From a virus (taxonomy: Duplodnaviria > Caudoviricetes): a stretch of DNA of 42,287 bases. The translations under genes were made by a program, and so were the position numbers. Under the pieces are notes generated by a model. That model saw only the letters and a list, made by a program, of their open reading frames with translations. It was not told the DNA's origin and did not search any database. Below are positions 9,316 through 37,465 of the stretch, in pieces. Position 1 is the stretch's first letter. Each line of letters starts with the position of its first letter. The stretch covers positions 1 to 42,287 of the IMG/VR virus record IMGVR_UViG_3300025084_000071; one strand, 5' to 3'.

Positions 9316-9720
9316 TCAAGATCGTACTAATGGGGTAGTCATCATATCATCACCCAAATAAGGGGCAAGACAAGTGCAAAAAGCAAAAATATTGCGTAAT
9401 TCCATCCTTACACGCTGTTTTTCTGATTGAGGACCCGTTACACCATTGTTAGATACCTGCCATTTTAAAACATCAGCCTCAACTAAAGTCTTGCCTTCGG
9501 TATTTGAAAGATTCTGCGCACTTTGAGCTGTATCAGCCGCTTCCCAATCCACCAGTAACGCCAGAACATCCTCCTGAGCGTTGATAGATATCAATTGCAG
9601 GCTATTCATACAAGTAATCACACAATCCTGTGTGTATTCACTAAAAGGAACAGACAATGCCCTGACTACCCTATATTCATCCCCAGTTGACCAAAGCCCA
9701 CTCGTGTCTAGAATAGTCAT
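9316..9720 (-). CDS. Putative head-tail adaptor protein
   Basis: Likely start MTILDTSG at 9720, 23 nt after the promoter-like motif. The LVEADVLKW motif and position at the head of the neck cluster support the call. Confidence 0.55.
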   Translation of the reverse strand: MTILDTSGLWSTGDEYRVVRALSVPFSEYTQDCVITCMNSLQLISINAQEDVLALLVDWEAADTAQSAQNLSNTEGKTLVEADVLKWQVSNNGVTGPQSEKQRVRMELRNIFAFCTCLAPYLGDDMMTTPLVRS

Positions 9721-9781
9721 TCGGCACACTATGCAATCGGAACTAGGGTTCCAGCCGTATAATAAGACAGGCAATAGATCC

Positions 9782-9976
9782 TTGAACTCCGAAAACGTTT
9801 TGATCCTCTCCTTAGCACTCCTACTGGCTGTAAGATGCCGCCAAAAAGATGCTGTCCTTCAATTATTAGGACAAATCTACCACAGAATGGAAGAAGACCA
9901 AGCTAAAAATACAATGAATCGCTTGATATATTTACTTGAACCGCAAGAACGTGACTGGATGAAAAACTTAGCCTAA
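9782..9976 (+). CDS. Hypothetical protein
   Basis: Non-overlapping 3' part of ORF 9581..9976 (TTG start, MNSENVLILSL...RDWMKNLA). Confidence 0.5.
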   Translation: MNSENVLILSLALLLAVRCRQKDAVLQLLGQIYHRMEEDQAKNTMNRLIYLLEPQERDWMKNLA

Positions 9977-10591
9977 AACCTGTTTCGGAAAATTTGTAAA
10001 ATTTTTTATAACACATCCGTAAATCTTTTAATCTCCTGCTGTTTTGATACACAGGCAAAATACAACCAGACGCTAATCAACTAATGCCAATCTTTGCTCC
10101 CGGACCCTACAAAAAACCACAAAGACGCAACCCACCACTAGTTGATGGCTCTAACCTTAATCACAATCAAACATTATCAACCCCCGCTGATCAAAATACT
10201 AACAATAATACCCCGAAAGTATCGTGAAAAATTCTGACGACTGCTTTATTGCTCTCATGTTATCTCACGCTAATAAAACCCTCAAGTTCCTTCGTGATAT
10301 ATCCCCAACCTATAGACCCTCCCCCTCACTACTCTCTGATAAAGAAGACTTTACTAACCAAATTATGCACCATCGTCAACATCAAAATGAATACTAGAAT
10401 TTGTAAAAATTTTTGCGGGGGGTCTGCCTGACCCTGGCTGACTCTGAATCGGGGGTGGGGGTATAAATACCTACCCAGCCCAGGATGTAAAGAAATGTCA
10501 AAGGTTCAGCCAATAAAACTAGAAACCAAATCGATTCGATCGATCAGTTGCTATTGTTGATGAGGAACCACACCTAACCAACTAAACTCAA

Positions 10592-10756
10592 ATGTCTCGC
10601 CGCTCTTGCTCTGTCCTTAATCTGCTATCACTAGCTGAGATAAAAGAAATTATTAAATTAAATATAAATAATGATTACGACATAGACGGCCAGAGCGATG
10701 ATGACGTCATGGCGTTGGCTCACCAAATGATTGAAGATGATGAGGCCGACTGTTAA
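10592..10756 (+). CDS. 54-aa acidic protein, first gene of the plus-strand cluster
   Basis: MSRRSCSVLNLLSLAEIKEIIKLNINNDYDIDGQSDDDVMALAHQMIEDDEADC, preceded by an A/C-rich leader. Confidence 0.6.
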   Translation: MSRRSCSVLNLLSLAEIKEIIKLNINNDYDIDGQSDDDVMALAHQMIEDDEADC

Positions 10757-10800
10757 GAGATGTTAAAGGATACAGGCCACCATCACGGTCAGCCTGTAGA

Positions 10801-10995
10801 TTGAGCAAGACCACCAAACAACGGATTATTCCAATGCTTCCACTGATCGAATCTCGCCATTCTTGGGCCACAAAAAACGCTCAATTCTGGGCCAAAGATG
10901 CTGCGTTCTGGACACGTTACGATCGCCGATCGAATGCCAGCAGAGGTCAACAGCGGCACGCTGACTATCTGCACGAGATCATGAATCACCGCTGA
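10801..10995 (+). CDS. Hypothetical protein (start probably the internal Met, MLPLIES)
   Basis: ORF co-oriented with its neighbours in the plus-strand cluster. Confidence 0.5.
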   Translation: MSKTTKQRIIPMLPLIESRHSWATKNAQFWAKDAAFWTRYDRRSNASRGQQRHADYLHEIMNHR

Positions 10996-11036
10996 ACCTG
11001 TAAAATTAATTCAACCAACCTAAAGGATTTAATCCA

Positions 11037-11633
11037 ATGTCTTATCAGAACCAGCTCAACATCAAAGCGGTCTATGACCTGGCCACAATCAAGGAGAGAG
11101 AAGATGGCCGTCTATGGTACCCACAAGCCCTTCAGATCGCCCGTGGTCTAGCTGCTCGCTATCGTGTCTCTTTAGAATGCACAGCTGGCGTCCTAGCTGC
11201 CCTGAGCCCTAGGAACAAGTGGAACCGCAACTGCGTCGATGCCGAGGCTTTAATCAGTACCTTCAAGGCTGACCCTGAATCTGCCGCCGATCTCAAGGTC
11301 TGCACGTTTGGCGCCAATAAAGCGAAAGCGTTGAGAATCTTAACAGAAAACCCAATCAAATCTGAGAGAGTCCTGGAAATCTTGAGCGGTCCAAAGCTTA
11401 AGGAATTCTACAGCTGCATCATGGGCATGCCTGATATCTGCATCGATGGGCACGCTTTCTCTCTGTGGGATGGCGGACGGATCACCCTGGCCAAGATCCC
11501 ATCGATAGGCGTCAAACTCCGGCGTCAGATCAAAGCAGATTATGAATCAGTCGCAACAGATCTCAACATCCCAGGATCTGAACTGCAGGCGATCACTTGG
11601 GTGGCATGGCGTCGTATCCATGGCGTTGGTTGA
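11037..11633 (+). CDS. Conserved phage protein (DUF7178-like; possible helix-hairpin-helix DNA-glycosylase-like fold)
   Basis: GRLWY...VLAALSPRNKW..N...KAL.IL...LSGPK..EFY...IDGHA...ELQAITWVAWRR pattern recognised from phage proteins; function is inferred. Confidence 0.6.
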   Translation: MSYQNQLNIKAVYDLATIKEREDGRLWYPQALQIARGLAARYRVSLECTAGVLAALSPRNKWNRNCVDAEALISTFKADPESAADLKVCTFGANKAKALRILTENPIKSERVLEILSGPKLKEFYSCIMGMPDICIDGHAFSLWDGGRITLAKIPSIGVKLRRQIKADYESVATDLNIPGSELQAITWVAWRRIHGVG

Positions 11634-11636
11634 TCA

Positions 11637-11873
11637 GTGCTAGAACTGATTCTCGCCGTCGTTATTTTCACGATCAGCAGCCGAAGGGCATCAGGACCAG
11701 CACCAGTCAAACCGCTCTATAAGCATCCATCCCACAGGCCTCGCCAATACGAAATCGTATCACGGGCCACATGGGACAAGCATGATCGACCGTACTTAGG
11801 CCCAAAACGGAAACGTACCGCTGAGCTCTACCGATCACGATTCGTATCCAAAAAGGTTCGCCGATTGTTTTAG
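11637..11873 (+). CDS. Hypothetical basic protein with a hydrophobic N-terminus
   Basis: 78-aa ORF starting 3 nt after the previous stop. Confidence 0.45.
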   Translation: MLELILAVVIFTISSRRASGPAPVKPLYKHPSHRPRQYEIVSRATWDKHDRPYLGPKRKRTAELYRSRFVSKKVRRLF

Positions 11874-11956
11874 AACTTAATATAAAGTTTTATGATCATT
11901 CCGGTTTAATCGCCGGATCTTTTCTAGATTAGGTTCAGCGAGAAAACACTCGCTAA

Positions 11957-12283
11957 ATGTTATTAACTCAACCCCACAAAACAATGAAAATCTTCTTTCA
12001 AATCTGCTCACTGATTCACACTTTCGATCTTGCCACTATTTTGAAATCTATCGCGTTTCCTTTCGTGTTACTTTATGTCCTGTATTTTGAGATCATTGAT
12101 TCACTTTCAAGTTCAATCACTAAATTAGATATAGTAGAATTACCTAAACCTCAGATAGCACCACTACAAGATCTTTATAATCAACTCGAAACCTTAACTG
12201 TTAAGAATCTCCGCAATATTACGGGCATTAAAAAGAGGCTAACTAAACCAGCACTAATTGAGGCTTACTTGATCACCTACTAA
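11957..12283 (+). CDS. Membrane protein with a C-terminal Rho-N/SAP-like helix pair
   Basis: Hydrophobic segment followed by LETLTVKNLRNITGIKKRLTKPALIEAY; followed by a terminator. Confidence 0.55.
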   Translation: MLLTQPHKTMKIFFQICSLIHTFDLATILKSIAFPFVLLYVLYFEIIDSLSSSITKLDIVELPKPQIAPLQDLYNQLETLTVKNLRNITGIKKRLTKPALIEAYLITY

Positions 12284-12301
12284 ATAACATATAGTAGAAA
12301 T

Positions 12302-12332
12302 GCCTAGCTGTTAATCAGCTGGGCTTTTTTTT
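12302..12332 (+). terminator. Intrinsic terminator closing the plus-strand cluster
   Basis: GCCTAGCTG-TTAAT-CAGCTGGGC followed by T8. Confidence 0.85.
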
Positions 12333-12344
12333 GCGCTATTTGAC

Positions 12345-12439
12345 TAGTACATTTGTTCTGAGTATTTATACCTAAAGTAGTACATACATACTACAGTACA
12401 TTTGTACTAAGCATTTCTACCCATAGTACATGTGTACTA
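12345..12439. promoter_or_regulatory. Array of cyanobacterial LexA (SOS) boxes
   Basis: AGTACATTTGTTCT (12346), AGTACATACATACT (12379, degenerate), AGTACATTTGTACT (12395) and TAGTACATGTGTACTA (12424). Three match the cyanobacterial LexA consensus RGTAC-N3-DGTWCB. Confidence 0.75.
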
Positions 12440-12878
12440 CCGCAAATGCGGAGTGAACACCGTTCACTATCATATCTGCATTTTTTAAGCTTTTTTTGCA
12501 CCTGCCCCCAACCTGTAACGACTCTTCACACACCCCCGCACCCGCACTTTGTTACCTTTCTTATTGTTACTTTTTGTTACAAAACCTTGACATTTGGTTA
12601 GGGCGAAGCCCATCCCCCCGACCACAACCACTACGATCTCACCCCTCCTTAAATGCCCTACAAAGCGCCTCTACTTATATATAGGGTACAACCCACCACA
12701 AACATCCTTTATCAATGACACAGCCCCTTACAGACGCCTCTGAGGAGGTCCTACAAATATATGGCCAACAGAGCAACATCAATAGTCCTTTATCAACCTC
12801 TTATTCTCACCCACCTTCCTACGAGTTATCACTGATGGCTTTTACACAATACTATATGTCTTCATATGTGTCTTTATA

Positions 12879-13006
12879 AGTCTTTATATATAAGTGTAGT
12901 TGGACACCTTGTCCTTTTTAGTTGGACACCATGTCTTTCTTAGTTGGACACCATGTCCTTTTGGTTCGCTGATTTGTCCTTTTTAAGGTTCGCGAATTTG
13001 TCCAAC
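12879..13006. repeat. Iteron-like array A: five 20-24-bp direct repeats after an AT-rich leader
   Basis: AGTTGGACACC(T/A)TGTC(C/T)TT.. x3, then GGTTCGCTGATTTGTCCTTTTT and GGTTCGCGAATTTGTCC. Confidence 0.85.
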
Positions 13007-13076
13007 TATCTGGGTAGAAGGACAATAAAAAAAAGAATAAAAATAAAAAAAAAGTTTTTCTCTGTACTTTAAAATA

Positions 13077-32746: not shown

Positions 32747-33163
32747 TCATGTCTCAATAGGCCCAAGAGTGGGATCCCAGAGCTCATCGCGATCAAAACC
32801 TTTCGGATCCGCGTCTCTTACGCCATATTCGTTAAGCAGATTATCATCAATCAAGTCGTCATCGAAGGAGTCCAAAATGTCTTGATAGTTAACAGAAAAA
32901 AGACCTTGAGCTCTTCTAGCTAAACCAGAAAGGCTTTCTTCTATTTTTTGTTGGTGTTCTAATTTAGAAATCTCTCTATTTATATACCATTGGGCTTTGT
33001 ATAGGTCTTCCAAAGCATCATTAGATTTTCTTCCGGCTCTGCTGATATATTTTAAAGAGTTACCTAATCCGAAACTCAGCTCCCAATCTTCGATAACGTC
33101 GATTGGTTCAAACATGCGACCCTCGGCGTAGTGGGATGGGCGATTGATTGGATCGTGGGTCAC
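32747..33163 (-). CDS. DUF3310-family protein
   Basis: DPINRPSHY...IDVI...F.LGNSLKYISRAG.K...EDL.KA.WYI. Confidence 0.85.
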   Translation of the reverse strand: MTHDPINRPSHYAEGRMFEPIDVIEDWELSFGLGNSLKYISRAGRKSNDALEDLYKAQWYINREISKLEHQQKIEESLSGLARRAQGLFSVNYQDILDSFDDDLIDDNLLNEYGVRDADPKGFDRDELWDPTLGPIET

Positions 33164-36568: not shown

Positions 36569-37465
36569 ATGCTGATCACCATGGAAGAGCCCCGATCCAG
36601 GTTCACCAAGGCTCCGAATGAATTGCTTTATTGCAGGCTGAGTCCGGCCCTGATTCTTACCTGGCTGCAACTTGCAAGCTTATGCAGAGATGGAGAGTCC
36701 AGACTTCTCACGCGACGACTGGCTGGTGCCGCAGAGGCTCTTGGCGTCGAATACAGCAAGCTTGCTAAGAACGTGCAAAGATTGAAAAGGTCCGGGGCAA
36801 TACGGCAAAATGGCCTAAGCCTGGAACTGGTCGTGCCAAGCAAGGAAGGAATAGATAAAGCAGAAAAACTATCGATAGCAGACGAGATCCAAGAAGAGCA
36901 AAAGCGCAAACCCAGTGGCCTTAGCCAAAAGGAATCGATGGCTCAAATAAAGGAAGCCTGGAATGAAAACAAACCAGAAGGTTATTTTAAAATTGATGGA
37001 ACTTTTCCGCTGCCCTTGTTTATAGCTATAGAAACTCAAGCCAAAAGGTTAAATATAGAAAGACCTGACTATCCAGATTTCGTTTCCGAAGTCCTGATGG
37101 CGGCAGGTGCTGATTCTTGGTGGTCTGCAAAAAACTTCAAAGCTAGTAACTTATTTGGCTGGTCGGCTGAATTAGATGATAAAAAGTTCAAAAATATTGA
37201 AAAACTTTACAAATCACCAAACAAACTCAAAAAACAACACAATTATCTTGATGAAATCTTTTGGATCAAGTGGTACGATGGATACAAAGATATCAGCAAA
37301 GTCGAATTCAAGCTTGCTGAGGATTACTGGGAGGCTCTCGATAGAGTAGAAGAAGAGCAAGATGATGCAACCGCGTATGTCTGGCATAAAGAAGGGACAG
37401 TAGTCCCTCACCACTGGACAGGTCGCAACGATCAAACCACCCGCAAGTTCCGCTATCTACCATGA
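36569..37465 (+). CDS. Putative replication initiator (N-terminal winged HTH)
   Basis: FTKAPNELL...LSP....W..L...AEALGV.......VQRLKRSGAI is O/DnaD-like; flanked by iterons and a coupled DnaB gene. Confidence 0.7.
   Translation: MLITMEEPRSRFTKAPNELLYCRLSPALILTWLQLASLCRDGESRLLTRRLAGAAEALGVEYSKLAKNVQRLKRSGAIRQNGLSLELVVPSKEGIDKAEKLSIADEIQEEQKRKPSGLSQKESMAQIKEAWNENKPEGYFKIDGTFPLPLFIAIETQAKRLNIERPDYPDFVSEVLMAAGADSWWSAKNFKASNLFGWSAELDDKKFKNIEKLYKSPNKLKKQHNYLDEIFWIKWYDGYKDISKVEFKLAEDYWEALDRVEEEQDDATAYVWHKEGTVVPHHWTGRNDQTTRKFRYLP

Follow-up and report, generated by a model that had tools for sequence, protein, structure and literature searches.

What would a cyanophage gain from a tight row of sites resembling those of the host repressor LexA, placed behind a terminator where no gene begins? 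We pursued this question in a window of 42,287 nt (the whole stretch of viral DNA analysed), which is a linear fragment, about 60% complete, of an S-CBS2/S-CRES3-like cyanosiphovirus with a gene order as in S-CRES3. PHROG annotation yielded a tape measure protein, a portal, a terminase and two sigma factors, as befits a tailed phage, as well as ribonucleotide reductase, thymidylate synthase, primase and DnaB. The window sigma factor shares 68-73% identity with that of the Synechococcus siphoviruses S-CRES1/2/3 and S-CBS2. Almost all genes lie on the minus strand; the boxes stand behind a plus-strand island of small ORFs (Table 1).

The island and the boxes at its end

The DUF7178 protein encoded in the island is 63% identical to gp36 of the T7-like phage S-CBP42. 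The gp36 gene is one of the small left-end genes that precede the RNA polymerase gene of this phage, which suggests that the island consists of early genes. DUF7178 is common to these siphoviruses and to T7-like cyanophages near early regions (with matches in 161 viral and 497 metagenome stretches); its S-CRES3 homologue is annotated, as deposited, as an N-glycosylase/DNA lyase. For the last island ORF, an Atlas score of 0.87 to a Rho N-terminal-like domain is a weak lead only. After the DUF7178 gene (11634-11738), two alleles coexist in runs X1 and X2 (103 nt versus 112 other nt), and a 43-nt duplication connects 12104-12146 with 12264-12306. Left of the island, the C-terminus of a plus-strand ORF (9581-9976) looks conserved, by eye, just before the left landmark in L052, L074, L121 and L310. 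In the window, the ORF is followed by a partial copy of the A/T landmark at ~9980-10010, with ~400 extra nt before the full landmark.

The boxes were compared with the cyanobacterial LexA consensus (AGTACWNWTGTACT; host boxes are tabulated in Li, Xu and Su 2010, PMC3091678). A scan reproduced the 4 LexA-like palindromes that an earlier note on this DNA had described, 3 of them consensus and 1 degenerate, packed into 93 bp. Boxes 1, 3 and 4 are the only strict matches (RGTAC-N3-DGTWCB) in the whole window; counted by strand, there are 5 matches compared to a mean of 0.31 and a maximum of 2 in 100 shuffles, and none of 300 Markov shuffles contained 2 or more strict sites within 100 nt. On its minus strand, box 4 is letter-for-letter the predicted recA box of Prochlorococcus MED4 (PMC3091678, Table 1). 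A search of the window, at its 60% completeness, for the LexA family TIGR00498 gave no match. The S24 peptidase family PF00717 was detected in 0/5 records (G039, G042, G021, G002 and S-CRES3), and PF01726 likewise in 0/5 records, the latter search being weak for cyanobacterial LexA, as its control missed Synechococcus elongatus. As these searches of the window and of relatives turned up neither a LexA nor an S24 repressor gene, host LexA is the likely binder of the boxes, which agrees with the identity that the note had given them. Marine Synechococcus has a DNA-damage-inducible recA/lexA/umuC response to mitomycin C, according to the accessible text of PMC3744912.

The second motif that was said to alternate with the LexA boxes (motif B) is present at the 3 places originally named, 10460, 12361 and 12410, and 2 further copies had been overlooked, one at 12293, overlapping the 5' arm of the terminator, and one at 12133, inside an ORF. 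The order of the array is A-B-A'-A-B-A (A, LexA-like; B, motif B), so that alternation holds nearly but not strictly. The definition of motif B was derived post hoc from the window. When counted in 78 protein-selected loci, it gave 39 sites in 209 kb of island-side DNA compared to 8 in 551 kb of tail-side DNA, with controls at 5 and 3. In 170 strand-contexts of related loci, T stood at the first flanking position in 122 and a purine at the second in 151, both positions lying outside the search pattern; motif B is thus a real element, a 16-bp palindrome. A TTGAC-like hexamer follows the B 12-mer after 2 nt in 11/170 contexts, which is the commonest offset, and several of these contexts, seen in S-CRES3 and in the T7-like G001, have a -10 element at 16-18 nt. 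This placement would be an activator-like position at early-type promoters, and it points to a factor used there by siphoviruses and T7-like phages alike. In L310, L317, L318, L322, L334 and L346, the B palindrome itself forms the terminator stem. The accessible part of a preprint on MED4 regulons (10.64898/2026.04.15.718746) names no motif like B, and neither NtcA-like nor NrdR-like patterns showed enrichment around the island.

The strong terminator before the array was found as described (stem 12302-12324), and so were the 2 palindromes that trail the boxes. Conservation, however, is limited to the right arm of the second; the CCGCA palindrome (12440-12451) was dropped as a conserved element, as the aligned relatives do not keep it. 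That no gene begins near the array also holds: neither PHROG nor Pfam matched any of 3 short ORFs to its right (12446, 12496 and 12715), and the DNA in which they lie shows many indels in an alignment of 5 relatives. A promoter scan called no promoter within the array, and no Rfam family matched it. A structured RNA was considered on account of a fold z of -4.7 and rejected, as z was -0.25 when the palindromes were kept whole and permuted. Using blastn, only short chance matches of the array to cultured phages were obtained, and with relative L027 as the query, the best cultured-phage match was S-CRES3 (E 2).

Table 1. Features of the window (positions counted from its first letter) and related features in two cultured phages.
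Feature	Position	Strand	Remarks
Left landmark: A/T run, G run, second G-rich motif	10396..10461	+	Conserved in relatives; predicted left end of repeat ~10420
Motif B at left landmark	10458..10473	.	12-mer at 10460; relatives hold B or LexA boxes there
HLR1/RpaB-like direct repeat upstream of first island ORF	10486..10505	-	By eye, consensus from PMC6525291
Island of small ORFs, likely early genes	10592..12283	+	ORF layout; S-CRES3 counterpart carries B-box promoters
DUF7178 gene	11037..11633	+	Pfam PF23802, E 2.8e-43
Last island ORF, 108 aa	11957..12283	+	Conserved in L012, L047
Motif B on 5' arm of terminator	12291..12306	.	12-mer at 12293
Intrinsic terminator, 9-bp stem and U8 tail	12302..12332	+	Ends the island; conserved in relatives
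LexA-like box 1	12346..12359	.	Consensus; starts 13 nt past U-tract
Motif B, 16-mer of TRRGTA-N4-TACYYA type	12359..12374	.	12-mer at 12361
LexA-like box 2, degenerate	12379..12392	.	2 mismatches; same variant in L010
LexA-like box 3	12395..12408	.	Consensus
Motif B	12408..12423	.	12-mer at 12410
LexA-like box 4	12425..12438	.	14-mer; perfect 16-mer begins at 12424
Short palindrome	12440..12451	.	Not conserved in relatives
Hairpin ending in 11-mer motif C (12462-12472)	12452..12474	.	Closes the array; motif C invariant in relatives
HLR1/RpaB-like direct repeat	12567..12584	+	By eye, consensus from PMC6525291
Right landmark: GC hairpin and C run	12601..12660	+	Invariant alignment columns; predicted right end of repeat ~12620-12660
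Candidate replication origin: AT-rich stretch, three 22-nt direct repeats (12897-12962), A tracts	12855..13060	.	Function predicted
Two-armed motif C in S-CRES1	L003:32280-32320, 32840-32885		Also in L071, L107, L354, L356
S-CBP42 box cluster	L207:470-565 = KC310805.1 ~32778-32863		T7-like phage, integrase encoded

Position and contents of the array in other phages

In relatives, the region opens on the left with a G-rich landmark, where LexA or B boxes are frequent. It is followed by the island, a terminator, a box array and motif C, and then by a GC hairpin with a C run, an AT-rich stretch and lineage-specific direct repeats. While this position is kept, the contents are swapped: LexA, B, DnaA-like boxes and boxes that we take to be Fur-like occur in varying mix. 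The DnaA-like boxes, labelled by the consensus quoted in 10.1101/866236, are found in relatives L059, L074, L087, L314 and L331 and in S-CBP42. A comparison across related cyanosiphoviruses, which had been proposed as a check, revealed exact box cores with changing linkers and a LexA-to-LexA spacing of 16 to 58 nt, with tandem expansions in L012 and L019.

LexA boxes are concentrated on the island side. In 78 loci fetched by a neck protein, this side had 42 in 209 kb and the tail side 4 in 551 kb, while the reversed-pattern control gave 2 and 14, respectively. At least 2 LexA-like boxes lie no more than 250 nt away in 22 of 28 distinct motif-C contexts, a set partly selected by the motif itself, and 2 strict boxes within 120 nt were present in 6/14 protein-selected loci having at least 4.2 kb upstream. 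S-CRES1 keeps the G-run and motif-C landmarks and has no strict LexA box; therefore, the array appears to be accessory. In the islands of relatives devoid of LexA boxes, motif C recurs several times as a pair of inverted arms ~16 nt apart, at which many contigs break; this unit could be a phage protein site, a processing site or a recombination cassette.

The distance between the terminator and the first box is nearly fixed. Among 160 terminator-like elements of the first locus sets, 14 were accompanied, within 100 nt, by a LexA-like or Fur-like box; the gaps from U-tract to box were 6, 11, 11, 12, 12, 12, 13 (five times), 15, 26 and 31 nt, i.e., 11-15 nt in 11/14 cases, including the lambda-like L029/L042 (12 nt). 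A stricter hairpin rule left a box in 9/97, with 5 gaps at 11-13 nt. A second set of 160 further loci, retrieved by the DUF7178 protein only, added 68 new terminators, 21 of them with a box; here, the gap was 13-16 nt in 12/21 and exactly 13 in 7, whereas the remaining gaps were 4, 25, 28, 29, 42, 68, 82, 82 and 99 nt, those of 28 and 29 nt having a DnaA-like pair in between. Where the gap is near-fixed, the box nearest the terminator is either LexA-like or Fur-like. The gap was thus outside the band in 3/14 and 9/21, most terminators have no box at all, and common descent links the cases, L299 among the 12 being a near copy of the window phage.

Similar arrays recur in at least 4 unrelated lineages. 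An IMG/VR scan for tandem boxes retrieved 37 loci, and the terminase of the window was matched in 2 of these 37 records, many of which are fragmentary. The 6 records viewed in full, whose hosts are presumed from the motifs, include a T7-like podovirus, lambda-like siphoviruses and a third siphovirus type (G002), and the terminases of array-bearing phages are unrelated (PHROG 38, 15 and 2). In the T7-like G001, the array lies just past the terminase gene, downstream of tandem B/TTGAC promoters, whereas the lambda-like G023, with its terminase genes at the start, has 2 boxes within 135 nt of the record end, near the predicted cos. In the complete genomes G039, G013, G019 and G002, every strict box belongs to a single cluster per genome (3, 6, 3 and 3 boxes). 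Two of them, the lambda-like G013 and G019, encode integrases; their arrays (L178:8200-8700 and L179:2290-2570) stand beside tandem repeats of ~23-26 nt, and G013 has Fur-like boxes as well as its 6 strict LexA boxes in repeated units. A tyrosine integrase (PF00589) was found in none of G039, G042, G021, G002 and S-CRES3.

At least one strict match occurs in 6 of 14 cultured cyanophages, and clusters occur in 2, S-CRES3 and S-CBP42. In S-CRES3, all 5 strict boxes are placed at one or the other edge of the island; S-CBP42 has 2 strict boxes, 1 degenerate LexA-like box and a DnaA-like box directly ahead of its RNA polymerase gene; a likeness of its left junction to that of G001 was noted by reading the sequences. 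Strict boxes are absent from S-CRES1 and P-SS2, and S-CBS2 has only 2 scattered matches in coding regions. The array is thus directly testable in culture, with S-CRES3 and S-CBP42 carrying boxes and S-CRES1 lacking them.

A probable terminal repeat and a candidate origin

Extending the earlier note, a long terminal repeat is probable here, with the array at its inner edge. The island and the array together probably form a direct repeat of ~2.2 kb, from ~10420 to ~12620-12660, whose ends we infer from the two landmarks. The junction of the 237-bp repeat of Syn5 is similar to the left landmark, and so, to a lesser degree, is that of the 206-bp repeat of P-SSP7, which has been mapped experimentally (PMC3350473). 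A 2,436-nt contig of a relative (L360) begins at the equivalent of ~10420 and ends 47 nt beyond the right hairpin, and in run X5, one contig starts at 10449; against the repeat, most other contigs pass through the landmarks or stop elsewhere. The depth inside relative to outside the predicted repeat was 1.57 in X4 (1 contig versus 11), 1.35 in X5 (3 versus 6), ~2.2 in X1 and X2 by a two-level estimate and 1.0-2.0 in X3, for listed contigs only and in runs that are not independent (X4 and X5 are one sample, and X1-X3 may have yielded the window itself); depth is, moreover, no copy number, and it could be raised by related phages that have the same island. The window terminase belongs to a PHROG common to T7-like terminases, but blastp gave 24% over 87 aa (E 0.004), and this distant likeness lends weak support to a terminal repeat; that P-SS2-type terminases are described as a class of their own (PMC2784084) speaks against one. 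Neck-gene contigs ending 1-3 kb upstream were rejected as termini, as they end at repeated motif-C units or at random, and a scan for the G-run only gave 47 loci, mostly from unrelated phages, with no relative's contig starting at the G-run. If the repeat is real, the array would lie ~1.9 kb inside the left end and within the last 0.3 kb of the right end. Physical genome ends are thereby predicted for the S-CBS2-like group.

The iteron array that was reported 440 bp away exists in the form of 22-nt repeats, although these begin at 12897, ~460 nt past the last box. In close relatives (L059, L066, L087 and L001:29700-29790), the repeats at this candidate origin have a wholly different sequence at a fixed position. 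GC skew gave no clear origin. A pyrimidine-dimer glycosylase gene (PF03013, 13077-13583) adjoins the candidate origin and is transcribed towards the array; as the S-CRES3 counterpart lies ~4 kb away, there is no fixed link between this gene and LexA boxes. Elsewhere in the window, a divergent 298-aa protein (36569-37465) is encoded upstream of DnaB.

Possible roles of the array

The boxes, their clustering, position and turnover and the near-fixed gap to the terminator being direct observations, the reading that we tentatively prefer is that the array acts in cis as a roadblock, which reinforces early termination and loosens when LexA is cleaved. Host RNA polymerase would transcribe the island from strong early-type promoters, and LexA and other proteins, bound from ~13 nt past the U-tract, would stop polymerases that escape the terminator, so that a protein barrier would protect both the candidate origin and the minus-strand genes that converge on the island. 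Cleavage of LexA, whether by UV, high light or infection-derived single-stranded DNA, would thin this barrier; read-through could then reach the AT-rich and repeat region ~450 nt on, linking the onset of replication to the state of the host. In roadblock studies, a bound protein meets the leading edge of an elongating RNA polymerase at about this distance from the end of the RNA, which would here lie in the U-tract. The near-fixed gap favours a roadblock over an antisense operator, a decoy or a T5-like entry stop, and it points to a natural case of roadblock-assisted termination. In G001 and S-CBP42, furthermore, the boxes of other lineages lie on the path of the likely early transcript. Since Fur-like and DnaA-like boxes are able to replace LexA in first place, the barrier itself may outweigh the SOS signal. 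Against this reading, the gap could equally reflect the closest packing that leaves termination undisturbed, which would be expected of a decoy too, and the array is dispensable, being absent or scattered in close relatives. At certain terminators, moreover, the release of RNA may be delayed by a roadblock.

A wider version of this idea, which we consider doubtful, is that a gene-free gate of host regulators (LexA, Fur, DnaA, RpaB and the activator of motif B) evolved in several unrelated cyanophage lineages at the end of the first-entering DNA, where it would hold back transcription, origin firing or genome entry until light, UV or iron empties the boxes, and thereby time lysis to the daily cycle of the host. 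Cyanophage infection depends on light and host state, for which captured metabolic genes are the usual explanation; with a non-coding block of boxes for host regulators, a phage could sense or use that state without any gene. The closest precedent are the clusters of CtrA sites in terminal repeats and gaps of phiCbK-like and other alphaproteobacterial phages, discussed as "lytic deferment" (Mascolo et al. 2022, PMC9437464). There, too, sites for a host global regulator are gathered in one region, often a terminal repeat, with turnover and independent origins, and the window group has its boxes in one intergenic region, with turnover and recurrence in unrelated lineages. However, LexA is here joined by B, Fur-like and DnaA-like boxes, while the accessible text of PMC9437464 reports no asymmetry for DnaA, SciP and GcrA; moreover, CtrA sites were shown to act at promoters, whereas the window array, known from its sequence, stands behind a terminator with no downstream gene. 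HLR1/RpaB sites have already been reported in cyanophage genomes (PMC6525291), and HLR1-like repeats flank the window island; the LexA and mixed multi-regulator blocks differ from these.

Three further explanations are each unlikely in our view. The boxes may be operators repressing a leftward promoter (-10 TATGAT at 12474-12469, start ~12462), a candidate -10 at the right edge of the array, so that after release of LexA an antisense or non-coding RNA, running through the array and on into the island, would shut early genes off. TATGAT is present at motif C in 16 of 28 distinct contexts, with a good -35 in L074/L222 (TTGACA, 18-nt spacer) and L360 (TTGACT, 16-nt spacer), and the boxes would fall at about +25 to +117. 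Yet 12 of the 28 lack the hexamer, including array-bearing L015, L023, L059/L221, L077, L087 and L345, the invariant motif C already accounts for four of the six letters, and the window itself has no -35, no call in the promoter scan, no Rfam family and a fold excess that vanishes under block permutation.

The original proposal, that amplifying phage DNA titrates LexA (in relatives also Fur, DnaA or RpaB) and so derepresses repair, iron or high-light genes, is likewise improbable. Its premise of no adjacent target gene stands, the number and spacing of boxes are free up to tandem expansion, several unrelated regulons are represented, and a terminal repeat would double the dose. With an S-CBS2 burst of ~60 (PMC6157547) and 27-46 predicted LexA-regulon genes (PMC3744912), late titration is numerically possible. 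A decoy, however, requires neither the confinement of boxes to island edges nor a near-fixed distance to the terminator, and SOS may be induced by infection anyway. In E. coli, the LexA pool is about a thousand molecules, and the 4-8 sites per incoming genome would be few against such a pool. The alternative offered along with the decoy, that the array couples the candidate origin to DNA damage, fits better.

The array might also serve DNA entry or the genome end, with host proteins at the inner edge of the repeat pausing, anchoring or ratcheting the entering DNA in the manner of the T5 injection stop; to this we assign little probability. As in Repeat Region 3 of T5 (10.1101/866236), early genes in a long repeat are followed by a conserved, palindrome-rich non-coding block with host-protein boxes at the inner edge of the repeat, beside neighbouring genes that turn over; DnaA boxes occur in T5 as well as in the relatives named above and S-CBP42; and because all genes beyond the array point back, transcription could presumably not pull the rest of the genome in. 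T5, however, is described with up to eight paired DnaA boxes in long inverted repeats, an 8-13-kb repeat and the A1/A2 genes, whereas the window has a predicted repeat of ~2.2 kb and a LexA-dominated, loosely spaced array, dispensable in close relatives. No T5-type pair, nor any DnaA box, is present in the window array, some relatives having single or paired DnaA-like boxes only, and no A1/A2 family is among the PHROG and Pfam hits of the island. The array is missing from S-CRES1 and S-CBS2, the boxes of lambda-like G023 lie near a predicted cos, and the DnaA model of T5 is itself hypothetical. We know of no two-step entry in cyanophages.

It is very unlikely that the boxes are a near-neutral by-product, i.e., remnants of duplicated early-promoter modules in tolerant non-coding space: while B and LexA boxes do occur in early-type promoters, a 43-nt duplication is present and many relatives have no array, the cores are exact despite changing linkers, the arrays recur across unrelated lineages and other intergenic gaps are box-free. 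Less probable still is a phage protein (terminase subunit, initiator or repressor) as the binder, for although the boxes lie near the predicted termini and the candidate origin, and motifs B and C have no host assignment, the boxes are identical with host recA/lexA boxes down to spacer preferences and are common to phages with unrelated terminases, and LexA and S24 genes were each found in 0/5 records; for motifs B and C, a phage protein may still be the binder.

A full-text literature search, which covered few subscription journals and no supplements, did not find LexA arrays or mixed multi-regulator blocks in cyanophages described; the accessible text of the S-CBP42 genome paper (PMC4646655) does not mention LexA, that of PMC5101192 contains nothing on phage LexA boxes, and no S-CRES paper was among the matches listed. 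In temperate phages such as GIL01, coliphage 186, the P22-type phages and CTX, LexA sites serve as operators of antirepressor or lytic promoters. These LexA-controlled switches (those of 186, P22-type phages and CTX being cited in PMC9437464) resemble the present case in that the host SOS repressor is borrowed as a sensor of DNA damage; they differ in that the 5 records searched showed neither a tyrosine integrase nor an S24 repressor and the array is not at a recognisable gene promoter. Host LexA boxes, as tabulated in PMC3091678, are single sites upstream of SOS genes, whereas here 4 are tiled edge-to-edge with others. Closer to the switch kind appear G013 and G019 with their integrases, as well as S-CBP42, where the boxes precede the RNA polymerase gene with an integrase nearby, which makes this cluster a convenient test of a possible SOS control of the early-to-middle switch.
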